35,554 nucleotides of DNA, from the IMG/VR virus record IMGVR_UViG_3300012346_000166, positions 1 to 35,554 of that record. The stretch is one strand, 5' to 3'. The DNA comes from a virus. The notes beneath the pieces were generated by a model that had not been told where the DNA came from, ran no database searches, and saw only the letters and a program-made list of their open reading frames with translations. How positions within the stretch are numbered: the stretch's first letter is position 1; every line of letters begins with the position of its first letter. The position numbers and the translations under genes were made by a program. Positions 1-32,940 of this stretch are shown here, one piece after another.

Positions 1-55
1 AACTGTTTACCGTATGTTTGTTCTTTTACTTCGCCACTTTGTTCTAGGTTATGCT
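1..55. repeat. 55-nt sequence identical to the window end (35500..35554); circular-assembly overlap or terminal redundancy
   Basis: Direct comparison: nt 1-55 equal nt 35500-35554 base for base. Confidence 0.95.
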
Positions 56-818
56 CAAATATAAATGAATCATAAGCACCGAACTCATTAAGCCATTGAA
101 GCGTATTAGGTGAATAACAATAATCATTTAAGAAATAGATAGTCAGCATTTCACTACCCTCTACCGTTACAGTATAGTATGAAGCGTTTGTTAAAGTTAT
201 ACCTGCACTTGTTAGTAAATCGGTATTTAAATTGATTTGACTAATTAAAAATGACTGTGTTTCAGCGTAGAAATCTATTAAAGTGCCAGACGAATCGAAT
301 ACGTTTATTAATAACTCATTCGGTATTCCATCCGTAATAATGTTTAGGTAAAAATCTTGCTCAAACATTTGATAAATACGCTCATTTCTTGGTACGTTTG
401 TAAGATACTTTAAACCAACGTATGAACTACTTGTGTAACTCTTCCACGCTTTGTCGCTTAAACACGCTTTAAATACGTTAATCGGTGTACTTGATGCGTT
501 CGCCTGGTCTATTGGTGTTGTACCGTAGTTCTCAATTACCTTGATGTACACTTCATTTGAGTAGTTACCTTCACTATACAATGTAGTAGAACGTGTTGGA
601 ACTTGTATAAAGTCTTTAACAACACTCGAAGCGTCATAATGCGCACGTGTTGAACGCTCTAAAAATACGGTATCTTCTGCTACTTGAACACCATCTACAA
701 ACGTTTGTACTTTGTATGTAAAGTTAGCATTTGCCGTTTGATTAGAACTGAATACAAATGTAAGTGGATTGTCAGAAGGCGACCAATCTTGTGGGGTTGA
801 AATGAATGTTACTGCCAT
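1..818 (-). CDS. N-terminal part of a 372-aa junction-spanning tail-module protein (possible distal-tail-like); continues at 35499..35199
   Basis: ATG at 818..816 overlaps the stop (811..809) of the upstream gene. I read every codon from 818 down to 3 and found no stop. The frame is continuous through the 55-nt overlap with ORF 35199..35384. Confidence 0.8.
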   Translation of the reverse strand, partial: MAVTFISTPQDWSPSDNPLTFVFSSNQTANANFTYKVQTFVDGVQVAEDTVFLERSTRAHYDASSVVKDFIQVPTRSTTLYSEGNYSNEVYIKVIENYGTTPIDQANASSTPINVFKACLSDKAWKSYTSSSYVGLKYLTNVPRNERIYQMFEQDFYLNIITDGIPNELLINVFDSSGTLIDFYAETQSFLISQINLNTDLLTSAGITLTNASYYTVTVEGSEMLTIYFLNDYCYSPNTLQWLNEFGAYDSFIFEHNLEQSGEVKEQTYGKQ

Positions 819-1408
819 GGGTCAACTATTACTACTGTCATTGCTTTTTTAAATAATTTCTCTATTGGTTTACGAAGATAGTTAACTAACTTATCATTCA
901 CAACATCGGTGTAGAACGGTCTTGGTTTCTGTCCGTTCTTTGCTACCATGTACATAAGTCCTTTGTCTAGTTGGTCGTAACTACTAAACATTGGTTTGCC
1001 TGAATCGTTGGTAAATGAATTTAAGTTAATACCTACATTCATACGCCACGCACCTATTGACTCTTTAAACTCTTCACGTGTTGCTCCTGTCTTACCCCAA
1101 TTAGGTGCGCCATGATTAACTGCAAAACCATTTACACCATAGTTAACATACTTCCAATATAAAGGGGCGTATATTCCTATTGTAACAACATCACCACTAA
1201 CCTCTACTTTAGTTGGTCTAATTGACTGCCTTAAGTTATTACTTGCTCTGATATTATAGCTATCCATCGAATCGGTTAGCTGTTTTGTAACATCATTTGC
1301 AAGCGTAGTTAGTAACTGTCCAAGCGGTGAATTAGGTTGCCCTTCTACAACCGCTTTAGACGTTCCTAGATTCAAGGCGTTTAATATGTCAACTTCACTT
1401 GCCATCAC
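809..1408 (-). CDS. HK97 gp10-like head-tail joining / tail completion protein
   Basis: 199-aa ORF. Motifs RQSIRP..V..GIYAPLYWKYVNYG and ..KPRPFYTD resemble the gp10 family. It sits among tail genes. Confidence 0.5.
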   Translation of the reverse strand: MMASEVDILNALNLGTSKAVVEGQPNSPLGQLLTTLANDVTKQLTDSMDSYNIRASNNLRQSIRPTKVEVSGDVVTIGIYAPLYWKYVNYGVNGFAVNHGAPNWGKTGATREEFKESIGAWRMNVGINLNSFTNDSGKPMFSSYDQLDKGLMYMVAKNGQKPRPFYTDVVNDKLVNYLRKPIEKLFKKAMTVVIVDPWQ

Positions 1409-1430
1409 TATAATATAACAAAATCAAACG

Positions 1431-2152
1431 TTAACGACCCTTTTTACTAGCAATCTCTTTTTTGCGTTTATGAACTAAGTATTTACACTTATGATTAAAA
1501 GCAAAGATATTCATTCTAGTTACCTCATGCCATGTCATGTTAAATTCCTTGCTTACATCGTCTATTACTTCTTCCCATTGAAAGGGTTTAACTTTCTCGC
1601 TTGGGTTATTAGTATCTCCTTTTCCGTGTATCGCTTCGTTGATGTTACGAAGCGTTGCAAAAAAAAATTGGACGCTTCTAAAAATGTTGATAGTGGTAAA
1701 TGATTTTCAAATTCTTTGTAGCGGTCTTTAATAGGGTTTATTAAATTATCATAAGCATCTACTTCACCATAGATTGCACCTTTTGGATAGTACATCAAAC
1801 AAGCCATTCTTACGGGGTCGCTTTCAATATCACCATTCGACCAATCAATATGCCAACCTACACCTATCTTTTCAGGGTTTACTAGTTCATACGTTTTGCC
1901 GTTCAAAGTAATTTCTTTCGGTGGGTGTTTTACAACAGGCATTGAAGCGTATAATGTAGCAATGTGATTCGATAAGTTTGTAATATCTTTCACGTCAATA
2001 CTCATTAACTTAGCTTTCTTGATTCCTGTAAAGTCTGCTATAAACTCAACCATTAAATTCAAGTCCATTTGACCGAAATACTTATCCGTTTGAATAGGCT
2101 TTAAATGCTTAATGCGTAAATCTTTATACGTCTTTGGTAGTTTAATTTCCAT
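1431..2152 (-). CDS. Predicted -1 frameshift fusion product (about 240 aa) of the chaperone-like gene
   Basis: The -1 frame is open from 1706 to the TAA at 1433..1431. It fills the otherwise empty gap before the next gene. A slippery run and hairpin are present. Confidence 0.45.
1565..2152 (-). CDS. Tail assembly chaperone-like protein, 0-frame product (195 aa)
   Basis: 195-aa ORF. ITLNGKTYELV is a motif typical of siphovirus chaperones. The ORF contains a U9 slippery run near its 3' end. Confidence 0.45.
   Translation of the reverse strand: MEIKLPKTYKDLRIKHLKPIQTDKYFGQMDLNLMVEFIADFTGIKKAKLMSIDVKDITNLSNHIATLYASMPVVKHPPKEITLNGKTYELVNPEKIGVGWHIDWSNGDIESDPVRMACLMYYPKGAIYGEVDAYDNLINPIKDRYKEFENHLPLSTFLEASNFFLQRFVTSTKRYTEKEILITQARKLNPFNGKK
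1632..1667 (-). promoter_or_regulatory. -1 ribosomal frameshift signal: U9 run (1667..1659), spacer, 8-bp hairpin (1654..1632)
   Basis: The mRNA reads AAU UUU UUU UUG CAA, then CGCUUCGU-AACAUCA-ACGAAGCG. All 8 stem pairs were verified. Confidence 0.5.
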
Positions 2153-2762
2153 ATCTGTCTTGAATTGCTTTTATTTTAATTGCTCTTTCTTTTTGATTCG
2201 CTTGTTTACCTAGACTTTTTTGCTCTGAATGTCTACGGTATAAATATAATGTTGAAGGGCAATAACCAAGTTTAGCACCTTTTGAAAGTAAGTGCATATT
2301 TAGATCGTATTCTTCAGCGCACGTCAACGATTCATCAAACCAAACATTGAAACGTTCAAACACATCTCGTCTATACATAAGCGAACCACCATGAATTATA
2401 TTTTGATGCTTCATTTGTTTTAAGTCAGGAAATGGAACACGTGGCACATAAATATTACGTACACCATTCTCAAAGAAATTAATTGCTTTACCATGAACGA
2501 AATCGAAACCCTGTATCGCTTCAACTGAGTCAGCAAGTGAATTAGGCGTTAACATATCATCATCGCATAAGTACTTTACAAATTCACCTGTTGCAGTTTT
2601 AATACCTTCATTCAAATTATATGAAACCGATTTATCTGACTTACTTAAAATGATTTCAATATCACCACCAAAGTTTTGATTCTTTATTGATTCTATTGCT
2701 TGGTTTAAATAACCCCTATCTTTTGAATATGGAATAATTACGCTTACTTTGGTTCGTAACAT
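2142..2762 (-). CDS. Family 2 (GT-A) glycosyltransferase
   Basis: N-terminus VSVIIPYSKDRGYLNQAIESIKNQ and a DDD motif (CDDDM) are typical of GT2. Confidence 0.75.
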   Translation of the reverse strand: MLRTKVSVIIPYSKDRGYLNQAIESIKNQNFGGDIEIILSKSDKSVSYNLNEGIKTATGEFVKYLCDDDMLTPNSLADSVEAIQGFDFVHGKAINFFENGVRNIYVPRVPFPDLKQMKHQNIIHGGSLMYRRDVFERFNVWFDESLTCAEEYDLNMHLLSKGAKLGYCPSTLYLYRRHSEQKSLGKQANQKERAIKIKAIQDRYGN

Positions 2763-3280
2763 AACAAAAATACTTTAGGGGTTAACTCTTCTTTATGTGT
2801 ACAATTCCAATCACTAAACGCCTTATCAAAGTGTTCGTGTTCTAGTTTGAAAGTATGGTATTGGTCAACTTCAATGCCTATACCTGTTAGAATGATAATG
2901 TTTTTTCGTGCAATACGTTTCATATTCTCACACGCCTTATCAAAATTTCTACAATTATCTAGTACTGCAAATGCGCAAACGGTGTCGAAATCAAATTCAA
3001 AATTAGTATAATCTTCAATCGCTACTTTAATAGCATCTTCATGTATAGGAAAAGCGTCAATACCGAAATATTCAACTCCCTCATCCAAACAAGATTTAAG
3101 AAACATACTACCACAACCAACATCGAGTACTGAATTACCTACACCGCACTTTCTTAAATGCGTTCTGTAATCTCGAATAACGCTATCTAAGGCTCTATTA
3201 TCATCTGAATGACCTGCCGACTTTCTACGCTTGTTTAAATTCTTTGTAGCGTTTATCCATGTTTGTTTGTTTACTTTCAT
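2744..3280 (-). CDS. Class I SAM-dependent methyltransferase
   Basis: Motif I VLDVGCGSMFL followed by GIDAFP; 178 aa. Confidence 0.7.
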   Translation of the reverse strand: MKVNKQTWINATKNLNKRRKSAGHSDDNRALDSVIRDYRTHLRKCGVGNSVLDVGCGSMFLKSCLDEGVEYFGIDAFPIHEDAIKVAIEDYTNFEFDFDTVCAFAVLDNCRNFDKACENMKRIARKNIIILTGIGIEVDQYHTFKLEHEHFDKAFSDWNCTHKEELTPKVFLLCYEPK

Positions 3281-3411
3281 ATAGTATCGTATTTTAATCT
3301 AGTCATACAACCATATCTTTCAATACTTGATTTGATGACATACCGTTTAATACCTGTACGTTTAAACCATAGTTTTTTATACGCTTTCTTTTTCTTTCTC
3401 GGTATTCTCAT
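3277..3411 (-). CDS. Small very basic protein (44 aa, MRIPRKKKKAYKKLWFKR...)
   Basis: Below the ORF-track cutoff. ATGA overlaps at both ends (3411..3408 and 3280..3277). I read all codons and found no stop. Confidence 0.5.
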   Translation of the reverse strand: MRIPRKKKKAYKKLWFKRTGIKRYVIKSSIERYGCMTRLKYDTI

Positions 3412-4283
3412 TTCGTCAATTCTAAAATTTTATAACCTGTGCTTTCGATATTGTGATTAATATAAAAACCTGCTGGAGTTAATAACATATTTCTGTCCAC
3501 GTGTTTTAAGTCCTCTAAGATACGATAAAAACTTTCTTGGTCATTCGCTAAACTGAAATAACACGCACCGTAAACATCGTCATATACTTTCGGGTTTAAG
3601 TTTTGAGTAACTACATGACACCCTAAACCACTTGCTTCAAATGCTGTTACACCAAAACAACCATAAGGTTTGCCTTGTTGCATAGGCGCAAATAGTTCTA
3701 CGTAAACATGACATTCACTCATTCGTTTAAGTTGTTGGTCATGGCTTACTTTAGTGCGGTCTATTCGTATTTCAAAGTCATCTTTAAACTGATTTAAAAC
3801 GTATTCAATACCATCAGTACCTTTTACAAATGGATTGCTAGGATAATGACCGATTATTAGTTTCCCATCTTGGCGTTTAGGTTGGCTTATCAATGTGGTA
3901 TGTGGTGCAATGTAACTCATATTACCCAATTGAATAAACTCAGTTTGGTCAGTCAGTTGTTTATAGTCTTTGAATAACTCGTTATACATTTCATGGTTTT
4001 GCCTGTAACGTGTTCCTGAATGATAGATAACAATTCGTTTCGGCTTACCCTCTAATACGTGTTTTAAAAGTCTTTCATCACTATGAAATATCTGAACACA
4101 ATCATAACCGCCTACAATATGTTTTATGTCATGCGGTCTAATTGGAAGTGATTGTGTTGCATAGTTGAACACGTGTTTGTTAATAGAATAGTCTTTACAA
4201 TGCACGCCAATTGAACGTAACGCATTTGCATTTTCGTGACTCATGTTTGCAAAATCATCAACGGCTAAATTCAGATACCTCAT
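3408..4283 (-). CDS. GT-B fold (GT1/GT4-like) glycosyltransferase
   Basis: GCFGVTAFEASGLGCHVVT resembles the EX7E region of GT4 enzymes. I prefer the ATG at 4283 (ATGA overlap with the HNH stop) over the track start at 4325. Confidence 0.55.
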   Translation of the reverse strand: MRYLNLAVDDFANMSHENANALRSIGVHCKDYSINKHVFNYATQSLPIRPHDIKHIVGGYDCVQIFHSDERLLKHVLEGKPKRIVIYHSGTRYRQNHEMYNELFKDYKQLTDQTEFIQLGNMSYIAPHTTLISQPKRQDGKLIIGHYPSNPFVKGTDGIEYVLNQFKDDFEIRIDRTKVSHDQQLKRMSECHVYVELFAPMQQGKPYGCFGVTAFEASGLGCHVVTQNLNPKVYDDVYGACYFSLANDQESFYRILEDLKHVDRNMLLTPAGFYINHNIESTGYKILELTK

Positions 4284-4777
4284 CTTGTAGCGTTTATATA
4301 TGAAAATGGAGCTAGTGTAGGACAATTAAATATTCCTAGTTGTATTTTCTTACCTGCCATTCTGCAACACGCTCTAAATCGTCCGCTTGGTAATTTTGTA
4401 ACTCCTGTTGGTAATGTTGATTTTTTCTTTTTATCCTTAACAAGATTGTGTCTTGTGGTTATAATTTGTAAATTCTCAACTCTATTGTCAGTTGATATGT
4501 TGTTAATGTGGTCTATAATTAAACCTGAAGATTTATCATAACCTAAAAATGATTCAGCTACTAATTGATGAACGCTTCTATGTTTTATTATACCATCTTT
4601 ACATAGGATAACTCTAGGATATCTACCTCTTCCTTTTGAACTAATCTCTTTACCACTATGTGAACGAATAGAACCGTTTGCGCTTTCCCAAACTCTAGGT
4701 AAACTTATCACGTTACCAATATTTGATACCTTGTAAATACCTTCATATCCTACAACGTCTTTCCAAATTTCTTCCAT
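4280..4777 (-). CDS. Free-standing HNH homing endonuclease (NUMOD4-like N-terminus, HNH_3, AP2-like DNA-binding tail)
   Basis: EIWKDVVGYEGIYKVSNIGNV; DHINNISTDNRVENLQIITTRHN; GVTKLPSGRFRACCRMAGKKIQLGIF. Confidence 0.8.
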   Translation of the reverse strand: MEEIWKDVVGYEGIYKVSNIGNVISLPRVWESANGSIRSHSGKEISSKGRGRYPRVILCKDGIIKHRSVHQLVAESFLGYDKSSGLIIDHINNISTDNRVENLQIITTRHNLVKDKKKKSTLPTGVTKLPSGRFRACCRMAGKKIQLGIFNCPTLAPFSYINATR

Positions 4778-4822
4778 AAAATAAAGTTAAGTAAAACTTA
4801 TAAATATCGCATACCAAATAAA

Positions 4823-4830
4823 CAAAGATA
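4823..4830 (-). promoter_or_regulatory. Bacteroidota-type -7 box TATCTTTG upstream of the HNH gene
   Basis: Plus strand caaagata; lies in the 83-nt gap between terL and HNH. Confidence 0.4.
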
Positions 4831-4860
4831 TTAATAAAAGTAATATGTAAACAAGTAACC

Positions 4861-6024
4861 TCATGATGCGAAGTATTTACCTGTGTATTTCTTAGTTGTG
4901 GTAAAGAAGTATCTAATACCATCAATCGAGTGATTAAACGCATCAATCGGTTTATTAAGCGTTTGACCTGCTTTGTCTTTAGCCCACGTATAAGAACGTA
5001 ATTCTTTGATAAGATTTGTACTTCGCTTGGTTACATTAAACGGTTTCTCCTGCATTCTTTGTATTCCATACATAACAGAATCTGCTCCCTTTTCCGCACC
5101 TGTAATCTTGATGCCCGCGTTCTTTAATTCCTGAATTGATTTTGGTTCTGCTGAATCAGCATAGATATATTCACTAGTAACTCCCACTTCTTTACATAGC
5201 TTTGCAATATCTTGGTTTGTTAGTCCTGTTCGATATATCAATTCATCAAAGTAGTATTCATTATCTAGTTCATAGATTGCAGTTAATGTTGTAGGGTCGT
5301 TTGTATATCCAAAGTCCATACCGTAACCGAGTAGTTTTGCATTTGATGGAATACCATCGACTTGTTTCCAATTGTTAAACACAACCCCATCAAGGTTACC
5401 AATCAACCCAAGCCCATAAACGTTATACCAATTACGCCAAAAGTCTGAGTTTTCAGCTTTCTCTTTTGCTTTAAGAATAAAGTTCAATGCTGATTCTGGA
5501 CAGGCTTCATTATCTTGGTAGTTGATTATGAGAAAGTCCACATCGTTATCATTCATCAACTCAGTATGAAACCAAAATTCATTCGTTGGATTCCAATCGA
5601 GTATAACGCTTTGTTTTGTTCTTGATGCTAATTCAGTATAAGCGTGAAATGTCATGTTGTTAGCTTCATTCATATAAAGCCTATCACGCCTTGCACCTCT
5701 TAATTTTGAATCATTGTCTGCACTAAAAAATTCAATGTACGATCCGTTTGCAAAAGTATATTTAAAATCCGTAGCATTCCATCTTGAATCAACCCAACGA
5801 TTTGTTTCTTTCATTATCTTCTTAAAGTCCTTCATTGCACCACGCTTTAAATGCGGTACTGATTCAGCTACAATTGAAGTTTCTGTAAGTGGATGCCTTG
5901 TACAATAATCAATTTCGATAGGTAGGATGCCAAATGTTTTTCCTGCACTTGTTCCACCTTGAACGCCTTTGATAAATCTCTTTAAGGCTCGAATTTTTTT
6001 TATTGCGGTTGTGTACTTAAACAT
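4861..6024 (-). CDS. terL: Terminase large subunit (PBSX/Terminase_3-like)
   Basis: Walker A GGTSAGKTFG, LDWNP, a C-terminal nuclease-like region, and position directly after terS (TAATG overlap). Confidence 0.85.
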   Translation of the reverse strand: MFKYTTAIKKIRALKRFIKGVQGGTSAGKTFGILPIEIDYCTRHPLTETSIVAESVPHLKRGAMKDFKKIMKETNRWVDSRWNATDFKYTFANGSYIEFFSADNDSKLRGARRDRLYMNEANNMTFHAYTELASRTKQSVILDWNPTNEFWFHTELMNDNDVDFLIINYQDNEACPESALNFILKAKEKAENSDFWRNWYNVYGLGLIGNLDGVVFNNWKQVDGIPSNAKLLGYGMDFGYTNDPTTLTAIYELDNEYYFDELIYRTGLTNQDIAKLCKEVGVTSEYIYADSAEPKSIQELKNAGIKITGAEKGADSVMYGIQRMQEKPFNVTKRSTNLIKELRSYTWAKDKAGQTLNKPIDAFNHSIDGIRYFFTTTKKYTGKYFAS

Positions 6025-6437
6025 TAATCTTCGCTACCAAATAACGGTTGTTCTATTATAGTTGTTTCTGTTTGTTCTTTTAAGTTGTTTAATCGCTGTG
6101 TAATACTTGGATTGTATTGACCAACTAAACCGCCTTCGATTTGGTCTTGACGAATGATTCTTCTTATACGTGAACAGATAGTAATATAATCGTCATATCG
6201 TTTATCTTGATTATCGAAATACTGATTCACACAACAAATATTATCCTCACAATAGTTTTGGAATCCTTCAAGTGTTAAAGGTCGTTCTAGTTCTTGCCGT
6301 GCATCCATTCCATCCTTACCAACAAATACATGATTCGTTCTAGGTGTAGACTTTACTTCTTTTCTATACGCTTCGAATAACTCAAATAGTTTCTCAGGCG
6401 TTTCTATGTATTTATGCTTTGCCATGATACTCTTCAA
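6024..6437 (-). CDS. terS: Terminase small subunit
   Basis: 137 aa directly upstream of terL. PLTLEGFQNYC and the helical N-terminus are typical of small terminases. Confidence 0.55.
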   Translation of the reverse strand: MKSIMAKHKYIETPEKLFELFEAYRKEVKSTPRTNHVFVGKDGMDARQELERPLTLEGFQNYCEDNICCVNQYFDNQDKRYDDYITICSRIRRIIRQDQIEGGLVGQYNPSITQRLNNLKEQTETTIIEQPLFGSED

Positions 6438-6807
6438 TTAATTCAATCAATTTCTTTTCACCTGCTTTGTGGTGGTATTTAATACCGTAACTATCACAAG
6501 TGTTTTTTAACTCAGTCAATCTATCTTGTGTAACTGTAACCACCTCAATATTCGGCTTACTTACTTCTGTTGCTTCGTGCTTTTCTTCGTGAAACATCAC
6601 AAAATTATACAGAATATTTACAGCGTTATTAATACAACTTGAACAACCTTTACTAACTCCGATTGCTTTACCTGTTGATAGCTTTGTAATTTCACGGTGA
6701 ACTAAATCCAAATGCAGAAATTCCTTTTCGTCAATATCAATAGCTTTACGCATTACTTTAGGTCGAATCACATTCAATGAATCGTTTGCTTCTTTACTTA
6801 TTTTCAT
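6412..6807 (-). CDS. Hypothetical protein with a C-terminal HeH/Rho-N-like motif
   Basis: 131-aa ORF; LTELKNTCDSYGIKYHHKAGEKKLIELI. Confidence 0.5.
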   Translation of the reverse strand: MKISKEANDSLNVIRPKVMRKAIDIDEKEFLHLDLVHREITKLSTGKAIGVSKGCSSCINNAVNILYNFVMFHEEKHEATEVSKPNIEVVTVTQDRLTELKNTCDSYGIKYHHKAGEKKLIELIEEYHGKA

Positions 6808-7055
6808 TTTCTCAATCTATCAATTAATACTGCAATCAAATACACTCCAATACTTGCAAGTGGCGACCAAGTTAAACCAAGTGTTATCCAAAATGATACA
6901 CAAGGGTAACAATCAATAAGTTTAACATATTTAGTCATACTCATTTTAAACAACCTTCTAGTCAAATAAGGTAAGTTTAATTCTTGGTGCAAAATGTAAG
7001 ATACAAACCAACCAATTAAAACAAGCTGGTAGTATTCATGTATTAAGTATTTCAT
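6804..7055 (-). CDS. Small membrane protein
   Basis: 83 aa, 2-3 hydrophobic helices, ATGA overlap at 6807..6804. Confidence 0.6.
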   Translation of the reverse strand: MKYLIHEYYQLVLIGWFVSYILHQELNLPYLTRRLFKMSMTKYVKLIDCYPCVSFWITLGLTWSPLASIGVYLIAVLIDRLRK

Positions 7056-11009: not shown

Positions 11010-11879
11010 TTAATAATCAATACTGCACGATCTGCCACATTCTGATTCAAAATCAAACAAATCGTTTTCATAAACATATTCATCTGTCGCCTTACTAAAT
11101 TGTTTTTTAGTGTCTTCAATTAATTCTTTAATAGATTTATTTTTTCTACCAAAAAAAGCACCACCTGAATTTACAAACGCATTGTAATTATCCTTGCCTT
11201 CTAATTCAATTAAAGAATATTTTTCTTCCATTTCATTCCACCATATTAATTTTTCAGGATATTCAACTGCAATTGTCATTTTTTTACGGTTTGACTTTTC
11301 AAAACATATATCACAATTACCTTCATATGCTTTTAATTTCAATTGAATAGGCTGGTCTTTCCAAAACATATTCCTTTCACGTTGACTAATTTTATTTTCA
11401 AATGGTGGGTAAAAAATATTATTTGTTTTATAACTATCTGAAATGCGATCTATTTCATCAATTCTAATTCCAACTGCTGTACTCCAATTATTAGCGCCAA
11501 ATAAATGATTTGCGTATTTTTGCATTGGTATAATCTTCAACTCTCTATTACACCATTTATTAGCAACACTAGGAATACCATACTTTTTAATTCCTTGTTC
11601 AAATAAATCTCCATTGGTACATAATTCTTCAAATGTAGTCACTCTAAAATCTGTTCCTTTCCCTTTCTCATTAAACTTAGCTTCTAACCATACTAAATTT
11701 AACCCAAAATACTTGTCGCATTCATTCATAAATTCAAGGCTTCTAATGTCTTCTTTTGAAGTGTTAGCCATTACATTTACAATATTACAATTTGGATACC
11801 ATTCTTTCATTTTAATTGCCATCATTACAGAAGTATATCCCGCTGAAACTGAGCATAAAATATTATCACTTGTTTTCAT
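11010..11879 (-). CDS. PAPS/APS-reductase-like PP-loop enzyme
   Basis: PP-loop-like SVSAGYTS, WCNRELKIIP, CDIC pair, C-terminal ECGRS (compare the CysH ECGLH motif). Confidence 0.6.
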   Translation of the reverse strand: MKTSDNILCSVSAGYTSVMMAIKMKEWYPNCNIVNVMANTSKEDIRSLEFMNECDKYFGLNLVWLEAKFNEKGKGTDFRVTTFEELCTNGDLFEQGIKKYGIPSVANKWCNRELKIIPMQKYANHLFGANNWSTAVGIRIDEIDRISDSYKTNNIFYPPFENKISQRERNMFWKDQPIQLKLKAYEGNCDICFEKSNRKKMTIAVEYPEKLIWWNEMEEKYSLIELEGKDNYNAFVNSGGAFFGRKNKSIKELIEDTKKQFSKATDEYVYENDLFDFESECGRSCSIDY

Positions 11880-21404: not shown

Positions 21405-21622
21405 TTTATTTGATATTTGATTAATTCTGTATTTGCCCATTCTAAGACTTCGCTATCTTCCCAAGTAGAAAAATAAGTGAAGCCATTTAATGTAACGCCA
21501 AATTTAGCATTAATTATTAAATCAACACTAGCCGTTTTAGCTTTAATGTTATCATTTACATTTTGTATTTCAACGCTTTCAATGTCTATTGTAGCGGAAA
21601 AGTTTTCTAGTTTTATTTTCAT
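21401..21622 (-). CDS. Small hypothetical protein
   Basis: 73-aa ORF after the fibre gene. Confidence 0.55.
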   Translation of the reverse strand: MKIKLENFSATIDIESVEIQNVNDNIKAKTASVDLIINAKFGVTLNGFTYFSTWEDSEVLEWANTELIKYQIK

Positions 21623-21623
21623 A

Positions 21624-23225
21624 TTAAGATAATGTTGTTCCTGTTACTGTGAATGTACGGCATCTAAAAGAAAAAGATGTACTTGTTTTACCTCTCGCAT
21701 CTATTCTGTGGTCGCTCCAAGAAACAATTGCAGAAGATGTTGATGAAGCGTAACTTGTAGATGTCCATACAACTGATAAACTTGTTATACTAAAGGGTGA
21801 ATAATTCCATGAAGTAGAAGCGCCATAATTTAAAATAGAAAATGCTTCACCAACATTTGGAATGCGCCATGTATTAAAGCCACCTACACTTAAAGCTGTT
21901 GCATTTGTTAAAGCATTAGTCCATGTTTCAAGAGGAAAAGCACCTTTATACCATCCTAAAACAGTCGATCCATCGTATGTACTCCAATCAATTACAATTC
22001 CGTTTGTATATGTTTGCGTTCCTACTTCGCTTGTAAATCTATTTGTATTTCCGAATGGATTGTTAGCGTTTAAAGTAGTGAAATTTACAAGCCTACCTAT
22101 TTCTAAATCTCCGTCGTCATTTGTTGCGTAACTTGTAGTTTGTCCTGTTTTCATAAGTTTAGCACCTACGGGAATTGTAGCACTAGCAGGTAATACAATA
22201 TCAACCTTATTCAATCCTGCGTTTGGTGTTACAGAAGTTGGTGTTACAGTCGAAGTGCCATCTGTTAATACAATGTTTAACGGTGCAGTTGCATCAATTG
22301 TAAAGTCATTTGTACCGTTTACTGTTATAGCGTTGTCTGCTACTGAATAGTTCGCAGTAGTTCCGCTTGGTATGTTTTGACTATTTATTAAACCGCCGCC
22401 TGTTTTGTTTATGTTTATAGTTGCATCAGGTGCTGAAATGTCAATATCTTTAACGCTAGGATATGCACCTGTATTTACTGTTGTTGCTAAACTGTTTTTT
22501 ACGTTTACATTCATGTCGGGTAATGTCAAACTACCTTCCGCAACAATGTTAGCTGAGTATGTAGCGTCTGAGTTTGATACTGTGGAGTTTTGAATAGTTA
22601 CGTCTAAATTTGCTGTAACATTGCCACTATACAAAGTAGTTAACGCTGTGTTTTTAATCGTATAAGTAAAGGCATCAGTAGTATAAGAATATACACCACC
22701 GCTTTCTACTGTATCAACTAATACACCGTTACGATAAATCTGTACAGGCAAACAACTTGAACCGATTACTTGGTCGAAATCGTAACCGCTCATAGGTAAA
22801 TCACAAATAGAGTTTGAATCTCTAAGCATGAAATTTACTGTCATTATATGACCTGCACAAATATCTGCTTGACTTTCGATAAACTTAGTAACACTACATG
22901 ATTCAACACGCCCCAATAATTGCCAACGTTTTGATTTATTCATAATATTGAATATGTGTCTACAATATTGCAATGTATCACTTTCAACATCATTCAAATT
23001 TGAATAGTCTGTATAAATTTTATCAGCTAAAACAATAGTAATCGGTATTGATGTTTGATTATCTAAGATTGAAGCACTTGGATAGTAAGAAGCCATTAAA
23101 GGATAATTAATAGTTTCTTCGTTTACTGCACGTGCAAAGTCACCCCAAAAGAATGTATGTAACATCAAGTGAGAACTTTGAATATCCGCTAATTCTAGCC
23201 TAAGTTGGTTAACGCTTAACTTCAT
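21624..23225 (-). CDS. Tail fibre / receptor-binding protein with a DUF1566 (Lcl C-terminal, lectin-like) domain
   Basis: KTGQTTSY..DDGDLEIGR...RFT...VIDWST...GGFNTWRIPNVGEAFSIL...WTSTS...RCRTF. Confidence 0.65.
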   Translation of the reverse strand: MKLSVNQLRLELADIQSSHLMLHTFFWGDFARAVNEETINYPLMASYYPSASILDNQTSIPITIVLADKIYTDYSNLNDVESDTLQYCRHIFNIMNKSKRWQLLGRVESCSVTKFIESQADICAGHIMTVNFMLRDSNSICDLPMSGYDFDQVIGSSCLPVQIYRNGVLVDTVESGGVYSYTTDAFTYTIKNTALTTLYSGNVTANLDVTIQNSTVSNSDATYSANIVAEGSLTLPDMNVNVKNSLATTVNTGAYPSVKDIDISAPDATININKTGGGLINSQNIPSGTTANYSVADNAITVNGTNDFTIDATAPLNIVLTDGTSTVTPTSVTPNAGLNKVDIVLPASATIPVGAKLMKTGQTTSYATNDDGDLEIGRLVNFTTLNANNPFGNTNRFTSEVGTQTYTNGIVIDWSTYDGSTVLGWYKGAFPLETWTNALTNATALSVGGFNTWRIPNVGEAFSILNYGASTSWNYSPFSITSLSVVWTSTSYASSTSSAIVSWSDHRIDARGKTSTSFSFRCRTFTVTGTTLS

Positions 23226-23728
23226 ATAAATCGAATGTTTGTTTTCGTTCTACCTTTGTCGGGTGCAATATTTTCAAATGAACATACCCAATTATAATAC
23301 TCAGGATATAACGTTTCATTATCTTTCAAGAATCCAATTAACGCTAATCTGTAAGGTTCAAAATCTTTGCGGTATTCATTGCGTAATTCAGTAGCTTCAG
23401 AAGTTCCAGCGTTCGTCATTATTTCATCACGATTTGCACCAACTGTTTTATTTCGTGTCTTGTAAATATTTGGATAGATAATCTTATAATCACAAGCTGA
23501 AGCAATGCAAGGTGCGATATAATCATTCAATAAAGTTTGTTCATCTGAATTTAGATCGTTTGCAGTAATACCTGCTAAAAGTCTTTTGTATAAACTTGTA
23601 CCAATAATAGGTTGAATAATATTATCTTGAACTCTTTGAATTGTAATCTTCAAAATACTATCTTCTACATTCTTATCAATGTAGCTGATATCTTTAACCT
23701 TTGTTGTTGTTATTAAATTTGCGTTCAT
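23222..23728 (-). CDS. Head-tail connector/adaptor-like protein
   Basis: 168 aa, helical, gp6-like pattern seen by eye. Weak assignment. Confidence 0.35.
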   Translation of the reverse strand: MNANLITTTKVKDISYIDKNVEDSILKITIQRVQDNIIQPIIGTSLYKRLLAGITANDLNSDEQTLLNDYIAPCIASACDYKIIYPNIYKTRNKTVGANRDEIMTNAGTSEATELRNEYRKDFEPYRLALIGFLKDNETLYPEYYNWVCSFENIAPDKGRTKTNIRFI

Positions 23729-23734
23729 GGTTTA

Positions 23735-24991
23735 TTAATTTAATGCTTCAATTATTACATTCATATAAGTTATAGTCACGTCCGATGCGTCTGTGTTGTT
23801 TTCTGTCCACATTTCTATGTAGTCATTTGTGGCTAAAGAAACGATTGTATGAACTGTTACTGATTCGGCACGTGAAGTTGAGTTAGTAGATACATACATT
23901 TCTGAATTAGTTATTACAGCACCATTCTTTGCAACATAAAAACCAACTTGGTCATTTGCAGAAGTCGATGTTACAGAAATAGTTGTTGTAACTTTAAAAC
24001 TTCTAGTAATCGCACCTACATAAGTCGCTCTATTATTAGTATGTGTAAACTTTTGATTGATACTATTTGCAGTAGTAGTTCCTGCTATCTTTAATGGTGT
24101 TGCACTTGAAATAACATTTGTTACAGTCGTATTGTTCAACATATAATAATTAGCCAATTCTGCTGAATTATTAATGCCTTTACAGTTTACAAATAACGCT
24201 TTGTTATCTGTGTACTGAACTCCTGTGTTATAAGTACCGCCACCACCAAAATTCACAGTATCTAATATGTAACTTTCTACGGGGATTGTAGCACTTGTAG
24301 AAACGTTTAACGATGTTTCACCACTCAATGTAACGAATGAACTGTAAATGATTCTAAAACGTCTTGAAACAGTACAAATCGAAGCAATAGTTAAAGCTGT
24401 AGTTCCTGAATAGTTATCAAATAAGCATTGAGAAAATCCAATAGTTCCGATAGTTCCATCAAATGTTAAACCGCCACTATTCAAAAAGGCACTATCAGCC
24501 ATGATGAAGTTTGAATAGTCTTTAATTGTACCAACCGTTGGGCAATCCGTAAAGTTTACACCAAACCAATCTAATGCCGTTGTAGTTCCATCACCATCTA
24601 AGTTCAATGCTACGTTTGCCTCAATTGTTATGTTTCGAATAGGCAAAGAATAGTTAGAAGTTATTAAAGCCGTACCTGTTAAACCTGTTGATTTAATACG
24701 GCAATTTTCAGAACTACCACCGATAATAGTAGTATTCACGCCACCAACTAAACGACTTCCATTTAAGTCAACAATAGACGTTATGAAGTAAGTAACGTTA
24801 TCAGCTAAAGTAATAACACCACTTACTGCGGTAGGTAAATCTGAAACACTAGCAACGAATACAACATCACCACTATCCAATCCACTACCACCAAGAAAGA
24901 TATCACCACTACCAAGAATAGTCGAACCATTGATAGTCTTTATATTACTACCGCTAGTTAGTTTATCTTGTATGTATCTTCTTTGGCTCAT
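23735..24991 (-). CDS. Thr/Ser/Asn-rich beta-helix-like tail fibre or spike protein
   Basis: 418 aa with repetitive short beta-strand-like segments and a G-rich N-terminus. Confidence 0.4.
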   Translation of the reverse strand: MSQRRYIQDKLTSGSNIKTINGSTILGSGDIFLGGSGLDSGDVVFVASVSDLPTAVSGVITLADNVTYFITSIVDLNGSRLVGGVNTTIIGGSSENCRIKSTGLTGTALITSNYSLPIRNITIEANVALNLDGDGTTTALDWFGVNFTDCPTVGTIKDYSNFIMADSAFLNSGGLTFDGTIGTIGFSQCLFDNYSGTTALTIASICTVSRRFRIIYSSFVTLSGETSLNVSTSATIPVESYILDTVNFGGGGTYNTGVQYTDNKALFVNCKGINNSAELANYYMLNNTTVTNVISSATPLKIAGTTTANSINQKFTHTNNRATYVGAITRSFKVTTTISVTSTSANDQVGFYVAKNGAVITNSEMYVSTNSTSRAESVTVHTIVSLATNDYIEMWTENNTDASDVTITYMNVIIEALN

Positions 24992-26862
24992 TTCTTTTTA
25001 ACGGTGATGTGCTGTTGGAACTGGTGGCGACACGAAGGAGTATTAATATCGGTTTCAGGATTATGATACCAACCACCTCTAAACGTCCATACATCACGAC
25101 CAATTGCGCTTGAAATCTTATTTATTTCATCACGTGTGTAAAGTCTTGGTAAGCTAACCATTCTCTCACAAAACGGACGACTAGAACCACCTGCTACTAA
25201 GTCAGGTGCATTCGAACGTAACTCATAAGAATAACGCACTTCTAATTCAGTTGCAGGTACACTCGCTTTTTTACCTTTATCTGTAACTTCCCAATCATTT
25301 ACGAATCCGTTTTCACCTAAAGCAAGTAAACGCTGTGAAATAAAAACACCACCTTTGCCAATTGCTTTAGAAATAGAATCAAAACTTTCTCCATTGTCAA
25401 TCATTTGTAGAATCTGTCTATCAATGTCGGTTAATTCAAAAGCGAATTTTCCCAAGATAAACTCATTCTTAAAACTTTCTTCGTTGTCTTCAAATGAATC
25501 GTAAGCACGTGAATTTAAAATAGTGTATTCGTCTTTAAGTACACCGCATTTTTCAAACATTGAAACAACGTCTATTTCTTCTGACATTTTTTCTTGTGAT
25601 AAAACAGTAGGCGTTGCAGTCGGTACAACATCACCACCTTCGATAGGTTGTAATCTTGCCAACGCACGAATTTCGTTTGTAGTTAATACGTTCAATAATT
25701 TATTTGCAACAAGTGGAGACATTCCATTAATCGCATTTGAAACCGCATTATCTGTTGAAACGTTTTTCTCTAAGTTAAGAACGTAATCATTGAATATAAT
25801 TTTACCTGCAAAACTGTTTAATCTTTTGAATGCCCACGTTAAAGAATCCGCTACAATTGCTTGACGTTTTTTAACGTAGTTTTCTTGGAACAATTTGTAA
25901 GATATTTCTAATTGCTCTTTTGAACCGAATAAAGAATCAGAAACTAAACCAAACAATTCAGCACTAATAACGCTATGTGCCATCATTATCTTTTTAGTAA
26001 TTTCTTTGTTTGATTCTAAGTATCTTTTATCTAGATCGTTTCCATTAATCTGTTGAACTGTTGGTGCTGAATCTTGACCGTCAGAAAAAGTAATTGTCAA
26101 ACCACCTTGTGTTTCTTTTTTAGATGCTTCACCCTTAACTCTACGTATAATTTTATCTTCTTCTGCTACCGTTTCAGGAACTCCATTTGCAAGGTTAATT
26201 AATGTACCGCCTTTGTAAGAATTGACTACCTCTGAATAGGTGAAATAGTCTTGCTCAATTCCTGCAAGTATAGAAGTAATAGCACCTGAATAAGTTGGTA
26301 CAGGATAGTAGTTTGAAGTAAGTGTTTTCTTACCTTCGCCGTGGAATCTTTGCTTTGGTCTTGTAACATTTGTTAAAATACACTCAGTATCTTCAGGTGT
26401 TACATAGTGAATAGACTTAATTTTACGGTAATTCGTCTCTTTTCCTTGTCTTGATTTACTCCAATCGTCCGAATAATCAAAGAAAACAAGGTTTTCAGTA
26501 GCGCGAATTAACTCAAAATCGACGTTTTCGGCGTACCATTTACCACTTGATAACGATTTTTTAAAGATTAGTGAGTAAGTTTCTCCGATTTCAAAGTCAC
26601 GAATAACACTTTCTACCGTACTTTGTAGCGTTTCACCGTGTGCAAATTGTACATTTTGCTCATCACCTTCGATAATTACCCCACCTGCGGTCATAAAAGT
26701 AACCTTTTGGTTGATAATTCCACCGTGAATAGGGTTATCATAAGCTATTCCCACAAGGAATTGAGGGTATAAATTATCTTCACCCCACTTTACATAGCCC
26801 GATTTGTCTATTTTCTCAGTAGGTTCAGGCTTATTAGCTTCACGAAATAGCGTTCGAATCAT
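24988..26862 (-). CDS. Portal protein fused to a winged-helix-like insert and a Mu F / SPP1 gp7-like minor head domain
   Basis: N-terminal GYVKWGEDNLYPQ portal-type start. Residues about 470-530 LTDIDRQILQMIDNGESFDSISKAIG. C-terminal SRPFCERM...TPSCRHQF. Confidence 0.55.
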   Translation of the reverse strand: MIRTLFREANKPEPTEKIDKSGYVKWGEDNLYPQFLVGIAYDNPIHGGIINQKVTFMTAGGVIIEGDEQNVQFAHGETLQSTVESVIRDFEIGETYSLIFKKSLSSGKWYAENVDFELIRATENLVFFDYSDDWSKSRQGKETNYRKIKSIHYVTPEDTECILTNVTRPKQRFHGEGKKTLTSNYYPVPTYSGAITSILAGIEQDYFTYSEVVNSYKGGTLINLANGVPETVAEEDKIIRRVKGEASKKETQGGLTITFSDGQDSAPTVQQINGNDLDKRYLESNKEITKKIMMAHSVISAELFGLVSDSLFGSKEQLEISYKLFQENYVKKRQAIVADSLTWAFKRLNSFAGKIIFNDYVLNLEKNVSTDNAVSNAINGMSPLVANKLLNVLTTNEIRALARLQPIEGGDVVPTATPTVLSQEKMSEEIDVVSMFEKCGVLKDEYTILNSRAYDSFEDNEESFKNEFILGKFAFELTDIDRQILQMIDNGESFDSISKAIGKGGVFISQRLLALGENGFVNDWEVTDKGKKASVPATELEVRYSYELRSNAPDLVAGGSSRPFCERMVSLPRLYTRDEINKISSAIGRDVWTFRGGWYHNPETDINTPSCRHQFQQHITVKKK

Positions 26863-27229
26863 AAATATCTGTATTTGTATCTACATTAAATGTAGGAATT
26901 TCCTCTTCTGTTGGTTCAATTAGTCGCATCTTACCGATTTCTACTAGATGACCTAGTGTTTCATCTGTACTGCCACCGTTTGGCATTTGATAAACTTGAT
27001 ATTCATAGTCGCCTATTGAACGAAATGTTACATCTGTACCTTCTATAAGTGTAAAAAGGTTGTAACTATTAACCGATTGTGATACATCAGTTAAATATAA
27101 TTTGTATTGATATTCACTAGATTGCTCTAATGTAAAAACGAATAGCCAATTACTTGGTAGTTCGCTTTGGCTTAACTCGCTTAACGTTAACGCTATTGGG
27201 TTTGATTGCCCTTGTCTTAATAGTATCAT
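26840..27229 (-). CDS. Hypothetical virion-module protein
   Basis: 129-aa ORF between the tube-like and portal genes. Confidence 0.55.
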   Translation of the reverse strand: MILLRQGQSNPIALTLSELSQSELPSNWLFVFTLEQSSEYQYKLYLTDVSQSVNSYNLFTLIEGTDVTFRSIGDYEYQVYQMPNGGSTDETLGHLVEIGKMRLIEPTEEEIPTFNVDTNTDIYDSNAIS

Positions 27230-27321
27230 CTTCGATTAAACCTTTTTTAATTAATAGCGGTTTGTTTTCCTTATTGTTTTCAATAAGTCCTAAACCTTTG
27301 ACAAATATTTTTTCCATAGTT

Positions 27322-27353
27322 AGAAAAATAAAGGGAGTGTATTTCAACTCCCT
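27322..27353 (-). terminator. Intrinsic terminator or attenuator directly after the tube-like gene
   Basis: 7-bp stem 27353..27347 with 27338..27332 (AGGGAGU/ACUCCCU), 8-nt loop, then UUAUUUUUC. Confidence 0.55.
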
Positions 27354-27360
27354 AAATTAT

Positions 27361-27891
27361 TTAAGATGCTGGTTCTAACAATGCATCAACAATAGCTGAA
27401 GAAATTTTACAAGCTTTTAATTTCTCTTTACCTGTTAACGTCAATGTGTTACCATTCATGTCTTCGTATTTTGTACCTACTGCACGCTCGTCTAATACCT
27501 TAGCACCGTTCTCAGCGAATAACAACTCATACGTTCCATCGTTACATTTTGCAATTGCACTAACACGACCTTGACAAAGTTGTTCAATCATAGTAATCAT
27601 TTCGGCTGTATTACCGTGCGCTACAATCGTTGCTGATTGTTCACGTGCATACGCTTTATTTGCTCTATCACCTACTGCCTTGTCTGTAAAAGTCGATGTT
27701 TCCATTTCAACATTGAACGGATAAGCGTACTTACCCGTTACTAATGTTAATGCAGAAACTTGACCATTTGCGATCGTGAGCGTATCAATATTACTTGTAC
27801 CTGTGCTATCTTTAGTAGCGAACAAGTACCACGTTTCAACACCACCTTGAGTGTCGCACAACGCATTATATCCTGAAGTTAACTCACACAT
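27361..27891 (-). CDS. Major tail (tube)-like protein
   Basis: 176 aa directly after the MCP gene. GGVETWYLF start and the NGNTLTLTGKE end are typical of tube proteins (by eye). Confidence 0.45.
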   Translation of the reverse strand: MCELTSGYNALCDTQGGVETWYLFATKDSTGTSNIDTLTIANGQVSALTLVTGKYAYPFNVEMETSTFTDKAVGDRANKAYAREQSATIVAHGNTAEMITMIEQLCQGRVSAIAKCNDGTYELLFAENGAKVLDERAVGTKYEDMNGNTLTLTGKEKLKACKISSAIVDALLEPAS

Positions 27892-27902
27892 ATTCTATAA
27901 AA

Positions 27903-28877
27903 TTAAGATGTAGCTAATGCTAATTTAGTGAAGTATTGAGGGAATACATAAGAAACACCTGAACGCCATTTTACACCGAAGCGTAATTTTTCGTCATTCT
28001 CATTGTATTTAAACTCAAACCCTTCGAAATCACCTTCCAAATCTGTACCAAAGAACATATAATCGTAAGGTACCGCATACATTTTAGAAGTACCATTCAA
28101 TTGAGAATAAGCACGAACACGAATGTTAGTAGTTGGTAAAATGAATGAAGGTTCAACTCCTGCCTCTTCTGAAATTGTGTAGTTGTAGTTGTTATCGTTG
28201 TAGTTTTGCTCAATGATTTTTCTGAATGTTTCACGACCTACGATAATTTCAACGTTAACACCGTTATCAAATAATACAGGGTCAATAGTATTGTACAATC
28301 CTAATGCAACATCCAATGCGTTTGTATTATCTAAAGCTGTTTCAGTTGAAGTGTATGTAATTAAACCCGCATCAGCATCCCACAATTTAATAAATCCATC
28401 GTAGTGTGCTAATGAAGGAACTAAAGATGTTGTATCACCTTTGAACATCAAATCTTGGTTAGCTTTAGCCGCTTTCTTAACGTAGTAAGATGCCATGATG
28501 TCAGAGAATGGAGCTTCTTGGTCTTGACGATTAGCACCTGCCGCATTCATCAACTGCGCCCAAGTTCCATTCAAGTCTTCATTACAATACTCTTCTTGAA
28601 TTTTAACACGCTCAGTAGTTAAAGTTTCGTTAGTCAAAACAATACCACCTGAAGCATTCCATCCACAAGATGAAGCCGCCTGTACAACTGGTGCTGATTC
28701 CAACAATTTAATTTTCTCTGAACCTTTTACGCCTTCCATTACAGAAATACGTGATGTTAACCCTGCATTGTAAACCAAGTCAGTTAACATATTAGTTGAT
28801 TGCTCATCTGTGTATGATGCTAAACCTGACACATCATAAGCAAATCGGTCTTTTACAATTTGATCTAGTTTTTTCAT
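27903..28877 (-). CDS. Major capsid protein (HK97-fold type)
   Basis: 324 aa directly after the protease-scaffold gene; composition and length are typical. Confidence 0.65.
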   Translation of the reverse strand: MKKLDQIVKDRFAYDVSGLASYTDEQSTNMLTDLVYNAGLTSRISVMEGVKGSEKIKLLESAPVVQAASSCGWNASGGIVLTNETLTTERVKIQEEYCNEDLNGTWAQLMNAAGANRQDQEAPFSDIMASYYVKKAAKANQDLMFKGDTTSLVPSLAHYDGFIKLWDADAGLITYTSTETALDNTNALDVALGLYNTIDPVLFDNGVNVEIIVGRETFRKIIEQNYNDNNYNYTISEEAGVEPSFILPTTNIRVRAYSQLNGTSKMYAVPYDYMFFGTDLEGDFEGFEFKYNENDEKLRFGVKWRSGVSYVFPQYFTKLALATS

Positions 28878-29956
28878 TTTGTTTCTTTTAGTAAGTCTTT
28901 ATAACTTTTTGTTTTTTGCTCTTCAACTTTCTTAGGATTTGCACCGAACTTTCCTGAAGATTTGAAAGTTTCGATTTCCGCTTTTAGTGTTTCGTTTTCT
29001 TTTGTAATTGCTGTGAACTTAGCTTCAAATTCTGCGAACTTAGCATCAACACCTTTAATTGTTTTTGCTAATACTTCCGCAACTTCTGCGCTTAATTCTG
29101 TTGGTACTTCTTCAGTAGCTTCTTCCATTGCATCTACAATAGAAACAATTGCACCTGTACCATCCAACGTTACAACTTTCACCGTACCATCTTCTAGTGT
29201 CAATTGATGCTCTCCTTCAGGTGCAGGAACTTTAACACCATCTAACTCGATTGTTAGTAAAGTGCCTTCTGCTAATTCACCTTCGTAAAACACAACTGTA
29301 CCTTCAGCGGTAGTAGCTTCAGAAAACGTAACTTCTTCTGTTGTTGCAACCTCAGGATTGTCATTAAACATATCCTTCATGATTTGCAAAAGCGATTTGT
29401 CTTGTTTACTCATCTTTGTTTTAACTTTAATTTGTTTTTTTTCGAACCATCCTTCAACAGAGAAGCCAACGAACTTGCCGCTTTTCACATCGTCCCACAA
29501 CACATTATCTTCAACGTAATACGAAGCAATCCAACTGCCATCTTGCAGATTCATTTGTTTAAATGCTTCAGGAACGTTTGGAAGTTTCGGGTCGCTATTT
29601 GAAACTATGTAAGAATCAATTAACGTAGCACCTTTTATTACGTCTTTGGAATTGTGTTGTTTGTTTACGTTTTGAATAAATCCGTTTTTAAAGAATTTTC
29701 TACGTATAAGGTCAATCGTTGGTGCATCAAATACAACATAATGCTCGCCCATGTCAGGCGAATTTCTGTATATTGGAGTACCTGCCGAAATCATTACACC
29801 TGTAACAATTCTTTTTTCTTCGTTAAATTCGTAACGTACTTGGTTTTTACCGAAAGCAATAAAGGCTTTCATGTGAGCAGGAGCATCGACAAAGGAATTA
29901 AAATCAATTCCCGTTTCGTCATTTTCGTTAACTACTATTTTGAAAAATGGTAACAT
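28874..29956 (-). CDS. XkdF-like prohead protease domain fused to an acidic coiled-coil scaffold-like domain
   Basis: N-terminal FVDAPAH...GFSVEGWF (XkdF family pattern); C-terminal half is rich in E, A, T and K. Confidence 0.55.
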   Translation of the reverse strand: MLPFFKIVVNENDETGIDFNSFVDAPAHMKAFIAFGKNQVRYEFNEEKRIVTGVMISAGTPIYRNSPDMGEHYVVFDAPTIDLIRRKFFKNGFIQNVNKQHNSKDVIKGATLIDSYIVSNSDPKLPNVPEAFKQMNLQDGSWIASYYVEDNVLWDDVKSGKFVGFSVEGWFEKKQIKVKTKMSKQDKSLLQIMKDMFNDNPEVATTEEVTFSEATTAEGTVVFYEGELAEGTLLTIELDGVKVPAPEGEHQLTLEDGTVKVVTLDGTGAIVSIVDAMEEATEEVPTELSAEVAEVLAKTIKGVDAKFAEFEAKFTAITKENETLKAEIETFKSSGKFGANPKKVEEQKTKSYKDLLKETK

Positions 29957-29982
29957 ATCTATATTAATATAACATTTGTAAA

Positions 29983-32064: not shown

Positions 32065-32087
32065 GTGTTTTGTATTGAATTATTTAA

Positions 32088-32095
32088 TACGTTTG
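32088..32095 (+). promoter_or_regulatory. -7 box TACGTTTG on the plus strand, upstream of the lipoprotein gene
   Basis: 23 nt before the ATG at 32119; TTTG at 32069..32072. Confidence 0.4.
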
Positions 32096-32118
32096 TATTA
32101 TAAACAAATAAATTAATT

Positions 32119-32936: not shown

Positions 32937-32940
32937 ATTT

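Follow-up and report, generated by a model that had tools for sequence, protein, structure and literature searches.

A glycosyltransferase and methyltransferase cassette in a hypervariable slot beside terL of an uncultured phage, with virion glycosylation as its favoured role

The window analysed here is the whole 35,554-nucleotide stretch of IMG/VR virus record IMGVR_UViG_3300012346_000166. Between the terminase gene terL and orf195, a probable tail-assembly-chaperone gene, it carries a cassette encoding a GT-B fold glycosyltransferase (GT-B), a class I S-adenosylmethionine (SAM)-dependent methyltransferase (MT) and a GT2 glycosyltransferase (GT2). An initial annotation had grouped these with a 44-aa open reading frame (ORF) as a four-gene cassette that might modify virion proteins, a host surface polysaccharide or DNA. 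The three enzyme identities hold, GT-B by structure and GT2 and MT by Pfam. A fixed four-gene unit does not: the cassette is one allele of a hypervariable slot, in which MT is dispensable and a neighbouring HNH gene is a recent insertion. None of the three roles is proven, and we favour virion glycosylation from context and by analogy. Tentatively, and with chances somewhat short of even, we propose that the cassette decorates virion proteins with a methylated glycan, in the manner of the Cluster O mycobacteriophages, by means of unrelated enzymes.

The slot was defined by synteny, for which GT-B and orf199, the gene beyond orf195, each served as seed for 80 IMG/VR loci; the comparison covers about 140 related metagenomic loci. 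Across these, the string orf195-orf199-p753-p169-tape measure-protease-capsid-portal is conserved and the terL-orf195 interval is variable. Among the orf199-seeded loci with both borders located (n=47, not de-replicated), 20/47 hold GT-B and GT2, with or without MT, and 8/47 hold other sugar-enzyme sets, while in 19/47 (about 40%) the slot is empty and terL abuts orf195. At least 9 different sugar-enzyme sets occupy the slot across relatives. The other sets include rhamnosyltransferase-like, GT25-like and GT9-like enzymes, a second GT2 family (as separate proteins, or joined to the first family in proteins of 410 aa), methyltransferases of the FkbM, Methyltransf_23 and Methyltransf_25 types, and the tailoring enzymes hexapeptide acetyltransferase, formyltransferase and, by a weak match, sulfotransferase. 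In the slot census, two proteins with a superficial claim to be TerL are two-domain glycosyltransferases and one is a ParB-DNA methylase fusion, while a fourth group proved to be TerL by hhalign. In more distant phages, a GT2-GT2-(MT)-GT-B module lies upstream of the terminase genes or behind a large tail protein. The terL-orf195 site is a hypervariable cargo slot and a hot spot of glycan tailoring.

A separate observation concerns one relative (L122:1663-4206), in which a Mom-family gene (PF25680, 9e-35) lies between ParB-DNA methyltransferase-fusion-like ORFs and terL fragments, so that in this clade the neighbourhood of the terminase genes can also harbour DNA-modification cargo.

In the window, where every credible gene is on the minus strand, the upstream border of the slot is terL (4861-6024; PF17288 and terminase PHROGs). 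It is followed by an HNH/NUMOD4 homing-endonuclease gene (4280-4777; PF13392, PF07463) and the genes for GT-B (291 aa, 3408-4283), the 44-aa ORF (3277-3411), MT (178 aa, 2744-3280) and GT2 (206 aa, 2142-2762). The downstream border is orf195 (1565-2152, with a -1 frame extension to 1431). The ATGA overlaps reported initially at 4283, 3411 and 3280 are all real, but the one at 4283 couples HNH to GT-B and not two cassette genes. MT and GT2 overlap by a further 19 nt and GT2 and orf195 by 11 nt, so that HNH, GT-B, the 44-aa ORF, MT, GT2 and orf195 form one overlapping six-gene chain, in agreement with the tight translational coupling first proposed from the stop/start overlaps. All four ORFs called at 2142-4325 exist on the minus strand, but GT-B starts at ATG 4283 rather than TTG 4325, a correction backed by its homologues, which all begin MR[YV]LN. 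The genes themselves are real, as homologues number >300 for GT-B, >170 for GT2 and >50 for orf195. Co-orientation with the structural genes, to which the initial annotation also pointed, is true but uninformative, since it is shared by all credible genes. The G+C content of the cassette (0.33-0.35) is the same as the genome mean (0.33). No terminator-like sites were seen on the minus strand of positions 1-7000, and a sigma-70 promoter scan, whose model does not cover Bacteroidota promoters, gave sites below chance expectation.

The GT-B protein has no Pfam match at E<=0.1, no PHROG match and no meaningful NCBIfam match, and its identity comes from structure prediction. An AlphaFold2 (AF2) model built from 36 homologues, with a predicted local distance difference test score (pLDDT) of 94.6 and a predicted template modelling score (pTM) of 0.90, consists of alternating strand and helix elements in the two Rossmann-like domains, with a C-terminal nucleotide-sugar site, that characterise the GT-B fold. 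Foldseek, the check suggested at the outset, returned GT-B/GT4-like enzymes as all its top PDB matches, among them PglA, BshA, SenB and PimB' (E 2e-9 to about 1e-7; template modelling (TM) scores 0.6-0.73). The modelled protein has a clear GT-B/GT4-like fold. None of the curated GT1/GT4 models PF00534, PF13524 and PF13692 matches the window protein at gathering score; a precomputed PF13524 match is present on two homologues, and proteins in which GT-B is fused to GT2 reach 22.7 and 24.6 bits, below the cut-off of 25. The family comprises 313 homologues in a 90% identity database and 401 clusters at 50% identity (E<=1e-30). A profile scan of 185,579 representative bacterial and archaeal GTDB genomes found no relative, the scan being motif-seeded and able to miss distant ones, and tblastn against 50,697 phage records found none either. 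The single true relative in BFVD (52% identity, TM 0.96) is an uncharacterised protein from an uncultured phage. GT-B is apparently the founding member of an unannotated, phage-only family. Its absence from the GTDB genomes searched argues against a borrowed capsule gene, and the suggestion that these might be ordinary host capsule genes is not borne out for GT-B.

GT2 matches PF00535 at 40.6 bits (cut-off 23.3, E 3e-10), carries a DxD motif (DDD, residues 67-69) and is remotely similar to the glycan-extending GT2 enzymes PglI, EpsE, TarS and SpsA. Its more than 170 homologues are mostly about 200 aa long and mostly on phage-sized contigs, and tblastn against the same phage records gave only 22-28% identity matches, to gut and Enterococcus phage records. 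GT-B adjoins GT2 in nearly all loci of sufficient length, and the two domains are fused, in either order, in single metagenomic proteins. Adjacency and fusions of both orders indicate that GT-B and GT2 are a functional pair. In a different setting, a GT2 that is 52% identical to that of the window lies in a prophage-like region (L147:10001-10666) of a 412-kb metagenomic contig, surrounded by helix-turn-helix regulators, an S49 protease and capsid-sized genes; the contig is presumably bacterial and may represent a temperate carrier and a clue to the host.

MT matches PF13489 at 30.8 bits (cut-off 27) and has the SAM motif I VLDVGCG. It lacks the DNA-methylase motif (D/N/S)PP(Y/F/W) and matches no DNA-methylase family in Pfam, PHROGs or NCBIfam, and tblastn against the phage records gave no match. 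We infer that it is a sugar O-methyltransferase, a role supported by the tailoring enzymes of other slot alleles, which are of sugar-acting kinds. NCBIfam scores of the cassette enzymes are far below the family cut-offs and allow no family-level assignment. Neither GT-B, MT nor GT2 has a hydrophobic segment (maximum 19-residue Kyte-Doolittle mean 1.06). MT is dispensable: it is missing, together with the 44-aa ORF, from L006/L086, which is 93-99% identical to the window in packaging, glycosyltransferase and capsid proteins (p753 78%, p169 59%) and where GT-B overlaps GT2 directly, and it is also missing from many other loci. An ORF at one distant locus (L071:9213-10004) joins the N-terminal start of a GT2 domain to a MetW-like methyltransferase domain and is either a true fusion or a recombination scar.

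The 44-aa ORF, which is very basic (pI 10.7), was not counted as a working part of the cassette. It is a lineage-specific 132-bp insertion located precisely at the GT-B/MT ATGA junction; in L004 and L002 it is absent and GT-B abuts MT. It matches no family in Pfam, PHROGs or NCBIfam, and occurs on only one other contig (L005/L084), at 61% amino acid and 74% nucleotide identity. The flanking GT-B gene of that contig is 91% identical in nucleotide sequence, i.e., the 44-aa ORF diverges faster, and the two copies differ by 17 nonsynonymous and 4 synonymous codons, with no sign of purifying selection. Its inclusion as a cassette component is thus not upheld, and it is best viewed as a recent insertion of doubtful function. 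Other small ORFs, of 57-118 aa and matching no family, lie at cassette gene junctions in relatives (L002:8299-8529, L002:9131-9307, L017:10861-11091, and upstream of GT-B in L009/L010); none resembles the 44-aa ORF of the window.

HNH is likewise not part of the cassette but a mobile gene that has recently inserted into GT-B at its 5' end. In two relatives without it (L002 and L006), GT-B lies 48 nt after terL. In the window, HNH is inserted directly after the fourth codon of GT-B, and the old GT-B start is retained as ATGCGATATTTATAA at 4798-4812, leaving a stranded mini-ORF (MRYL-stop) upstream. The insert provides a new start, ATGAGGTATCTG, as a synonymous replacement, so that GT-B is intact and overlaps the HNH stop.

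The downstream border of the slot is defined by orf195, in which a slippery T TTT TTT occurs at about 1667 and the -1 frame is open to 1431. The encoded -1 frame peptide is conserved in all relatives inspected, and a slippery heptamer followed by an open -1 frame of at least 50 aa is present in 96/98 orf195 homologues; in L106 the two parts are fused in frame. A separate 35-aa "ORF" at 1431-1538 is the tail end of this peptide. A -1 frameshift of the lambda G/GT type is a signature of tail assembly chaperones, and orf195 with its extension is probably a tail assembly chaperone pair. The frameshift is what carries this assignment, as an AF2 model of orf195 (pLDDT 88) gave no match in a PDB fold search. 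Despite the chaperone signature, orf195 lies four or five genes from the tape-measure-like gene. The next gene, orf199 (809-1408, minus strand), is weakly gp10-like and has no tblastn match in isolate phages. Together, the chaperone-type frameshift and the gp10-like gene bear out the placement of the cassette between terL and tail genes.

The ends of the window (1-55 and 35500-35554) form an exact 55-bp direct repeat, which marks the window as a complete genome, 35,499 bp long, assembled as a circle. The local gene order begins with TerS, the terminase small subunit (6024-6437, minus strand). Past orf199 it continues across the circle junction, which falls within a 372-aa gene between orf199 and p753, to p753, p169, the tape-measure-like, protease/scaffold, putative capsid (p324) and portal genes, followed by fibre-like proteins and lysis genes. 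This module order (21600-35554, 1-2152) is unusual in that tail-like and tape-measure-like genes precede protease, capsid and portal, the last about 14 kb downstream of terL, and the tail and capsid-region proteins are without cultured relatives, apart from a weak portal match. Among the replication genes, a 289-aa protein (11010-11879) is phosphoadenosine phosphosulfate (PAPS)-reductase-like (phrog_424, 1e-35), without a Pfam match.

TerL shares 56% identity with its counterpart in Flavobacterium psychrophilum phages, and the portal weakly matches Nonlabens phages (tblastn, isolate phages). These two matches point to a Flavobacteriia host, and the phage, judged from sequence, is probably a siphovirus-like phage of Flavobacteriia. 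A nucleotide search of 8 kb against isolate phages returned nothing, and isolates of this clade are absent from the phage collection. The phage appears to be strictly lytic: there is no integrase among the scanned ORFs, and GTDB scans with GT-B and orf199 profiles, which were motif-seeded and could miss distant sequences, found no prophage relative, leaving both host-derived capsule genes and a prophage origin unsupported.

In the virion glycosylation that we favour, the cassette would be expressed late, from its slot between terL and the tail-assembly-chaperone gene. While particles are being assembled in the cytoplasm, GT-B and GT2, both soluble, would attach a short glycan, made from nucleotide sugars of the host, to at least one phage structural protein, and MT would O-methylate, and so cap, a sugar. 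Related phages with other transferase and tailoring sets at the slot would make different glycans, and those with an empty slot none; the benefit may be, for example, shielding of the virion surface. Several observations point this way. The flanks are morphogenesis genes, TerS and TerL upstream and orf195, the gp10-like gene, large tail-like proteins and the tape-measure-like gene downstream, and the cassette is coupled to them. The enzymes are soluble and without export machinery; no flippase, polymerase or priming transferase was seen. Diversification of the slot is the pattern expected of an exposed, diversifying glycan. Furthermore, no relative was found in the cellular genomes searched, the complete genome has no base-hydroxylating enzyme, and there is a precedent in Corndog, where an O-methyltransferase and glycosyltransferases also lie inside the virion operon (PMC4351075).

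A number of observations weigh against this proposal. The analysis turned up no acceptor. A C-terminal extension rich in Ser/Thr is missing from p324, the putative major capsid protein, capsid C-termini are short and alike with and without the cassette, and a comparison of the capsid protein, orf195, orf199 and p169 for acceptor tails showed no difference by cassette status. The capsid of two empty-slot phages (L114, L118) is 75% identical to that of the window, and the empty slots among the informative relatives imply that assembly does not require the glycan. For both transferases, the cellular enzymes most closely related to them use acceptors that are lipid-linked or small molecules. A phage DNA arabinosyltransferase (HY126, 9ir0) ranks fourth among the PDB matches of GT-B, and BFVD matches include DNA alpha-glucosyltransferases, so that fold similarity does not discriminate. 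Late timing would also fit DNA modification before packaging (PMC13326640).

Modification of host envelope glycans is one alternative, and an unlikely one. Here the transferases would act at the cytoplasmic face on lipid- or polymer-linked precursors of O-antigen, capsule or another surface polysaccharide, and the methyl group would cap or terminate chains, blocking superinfection or the adsorption of progeny to debris. Such acceptors are used by the nearest characterised relatives of both the GT4 (PglA, PimB', BshA-type) and the GT2 enzyme (PglI, EpsE, TarS, TuaG-type). The slot diversity also parallels that of O-antigen and capsule loci, and lipopolysaccharide modification has been suggested for a structural-module glycosyltransferase of a Cellulophaga phage (PMC11946311). 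However, seroconversion is a lysogen trait and this phage looks strictly lytic; neither the membrane-embedded GtrA/B/C-like proteins nor the temperate lifestyle of Gtr-type systems was found in it, and it has no other membrane component or flippase. With the genes placed in the late morphogenesis string, little time would remain for export, and a GT-B family found in no cellular genome searched would be odd for an enzyme that recognises a host precursor.

Sugar hypermodification of the phage DNA shortly before packaging, with GT-B placing the first sugar on a base, GT2 extending it and MT tailoring it, is improbable as well. It would explain the location beside the terminase genes, and it has parallels: phage enzymes of the GT-B and GT-A folds are known to assemble di- and oligosaccharides on DNA bases (bioRxiv 10.1101/2023.12.21.572611; PMC13326640), and the known group transfers to DNA take place late, ahead of packaging (PMC13326640). 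The rank of the DNA arabinosyltransferase among the structural matches of GT-B and the Mom-family gene near the terminase genes of L122 are consistent with it too. However, known routes depend on hydroxylation of the base, for which they use either a thymidylate-synthase homologue or a C5-methyltransferase together with a TET-like oxygenase, and the genes concerned usually cluster with that of the transferase. The complete genome encodes no thymidylate-synthase-like, TET-like or C5-cytosine methyltransferase protein among all ORFs of at least 148 aa (Pfam and/or PHROGs), every ORF of at least 200 aa outside the virion module has an assigned function, and neither a phage DNA polymerase nor a nucleotide-metabolism module is present. 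T4 beta-glucosyltransferase does not appear in the top 50 PDB matches of GT-B, MT is devoid of DNA-methylase motifs, and the formyl- and acetyltransferases and FkbM methyltransferases of sister slots are polysaccharide-tailoring kinds.

Some other acceptor is very unlikely, whether a methylated oligosaccharide or small molecule that stays free in the cytoplasm or a host protein that is glycosylated as part of takeover: a mycobacterial GT-B of about 300 aa does make cytoplasmic methylmannose polysaccharide with methyltransferases, that mannosyltransferase (7qsg) is among the GT-B matches and the small-molecule enzymes SenB and BshA are among the top ones, but the benefit to a lytic phage is not evident, takeover functions are normally early genes, and slot hypervariability and morphogenesis linkage would be left unexplained.

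As far as the papers found go, phage-encoded virion glycosylation has been shown experimentally only for mycobacteriophages; a cassette working alike would make the trait far more widespread, of independent origin and with O-antigen-like variation between close relatives, affecting phage recognition by grazers, proteases, mucus and immune systems. The wider proposal, that a large uncultured aquatic phage clade has strain-variable, tailored virion glycans (methylated, and acetylated or formylated in sister lineages) that are encoded at one terL slot and made partly by a phage-only GT-B family, is possible but less probable than not; it would mean that phage "serotypes" exist beyond the actinobacteriophages, having evolved independently. 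The slot also provides a precise genomic site to mine for new sugar-tailoring enzymes, and natural variants without MT or without the whole cassette make the question directly testable given a host.

Among known systems, bacterial GT4/GT2 polysaccharide assembly (PglA/PglI, TarS, EpsE) shares with the cassette its folds, the DxD motif and a logic in which methylation comes after a series of transfers. It differs in that the enzymes here fall far short of the NCBIfam cut-offs and have no relative that we found in the cellular genomes searched, nor lipid-carrier or export machinery beside them. With the T4 alpha/beta-GT and the 5-hydroxymethylcytosine (5hmC) and 5-hydroxycytosine (5hoC) glycan pathways, the cassette has in common phage GT-B and GT-A enzymes in series and a generic fold similarity; in contrast to these systems, it is not clustered with DNA-metabolism genes, and the genome lacks a base-hydroxylating enzyme.

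No isolate record or paper describing such a cassette in phages of this type was found, in agreement with what the initial annotation had stated. The nearest case is the genus of Cellulophaga phage phi18:1, a similar-sized flavophage whose structural module contains a glycosyltransferase, gp41, of undefined role (PMC11946311). There, however, gp41 is a single gene without a reported methyltransferase or second transferase, and no Cellulophaga phage appeared in our tblastn results.

The closest parallels are the Cluster O (Corndog gp35-38) and Cluster F (Che8-like) phages, which likewise have a SAM O-methyltransferase and several glycosyltransferases among co-transcribed virion genes. The window shares the actinobacteriophage-type arrangement, with glycosyltransferase and methyltransferase genes lying within the virion string, and in Corndog an HNH gene also directly follows terL (PMC4351075). 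The glycosylation genes of Clusters O and F are not virion components and are not required for assembly, as the empty slots indicate here. Glycosylation of capsid and tail tube in mycobacteriophages is attributed to Freeman 2023 in PMC11600133 and PMC12619734; there it is reported on virions, whereas here it is predicted from genes. The hosts belong to different phyla, and the genes lie at a terL/tail-chaperone position here and at a portal/protease position there. A C-terminal acceptor tail is not seen here on the capsid, the one of the two subunits, capsid and tail tube, that was examined, and the slot is hypervariable and often empty. Furthermore, no sequence relationship to the Corndog or Che8 enzymes was detected, as tblastn of the three enzymes gave no actinophage match among the phage records searched. 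The idea is known from actinobacteriophages; what is new here, and unannotated, is the combination of enzymes, slot architecture, GT-B family and host group, each of them in its own right.

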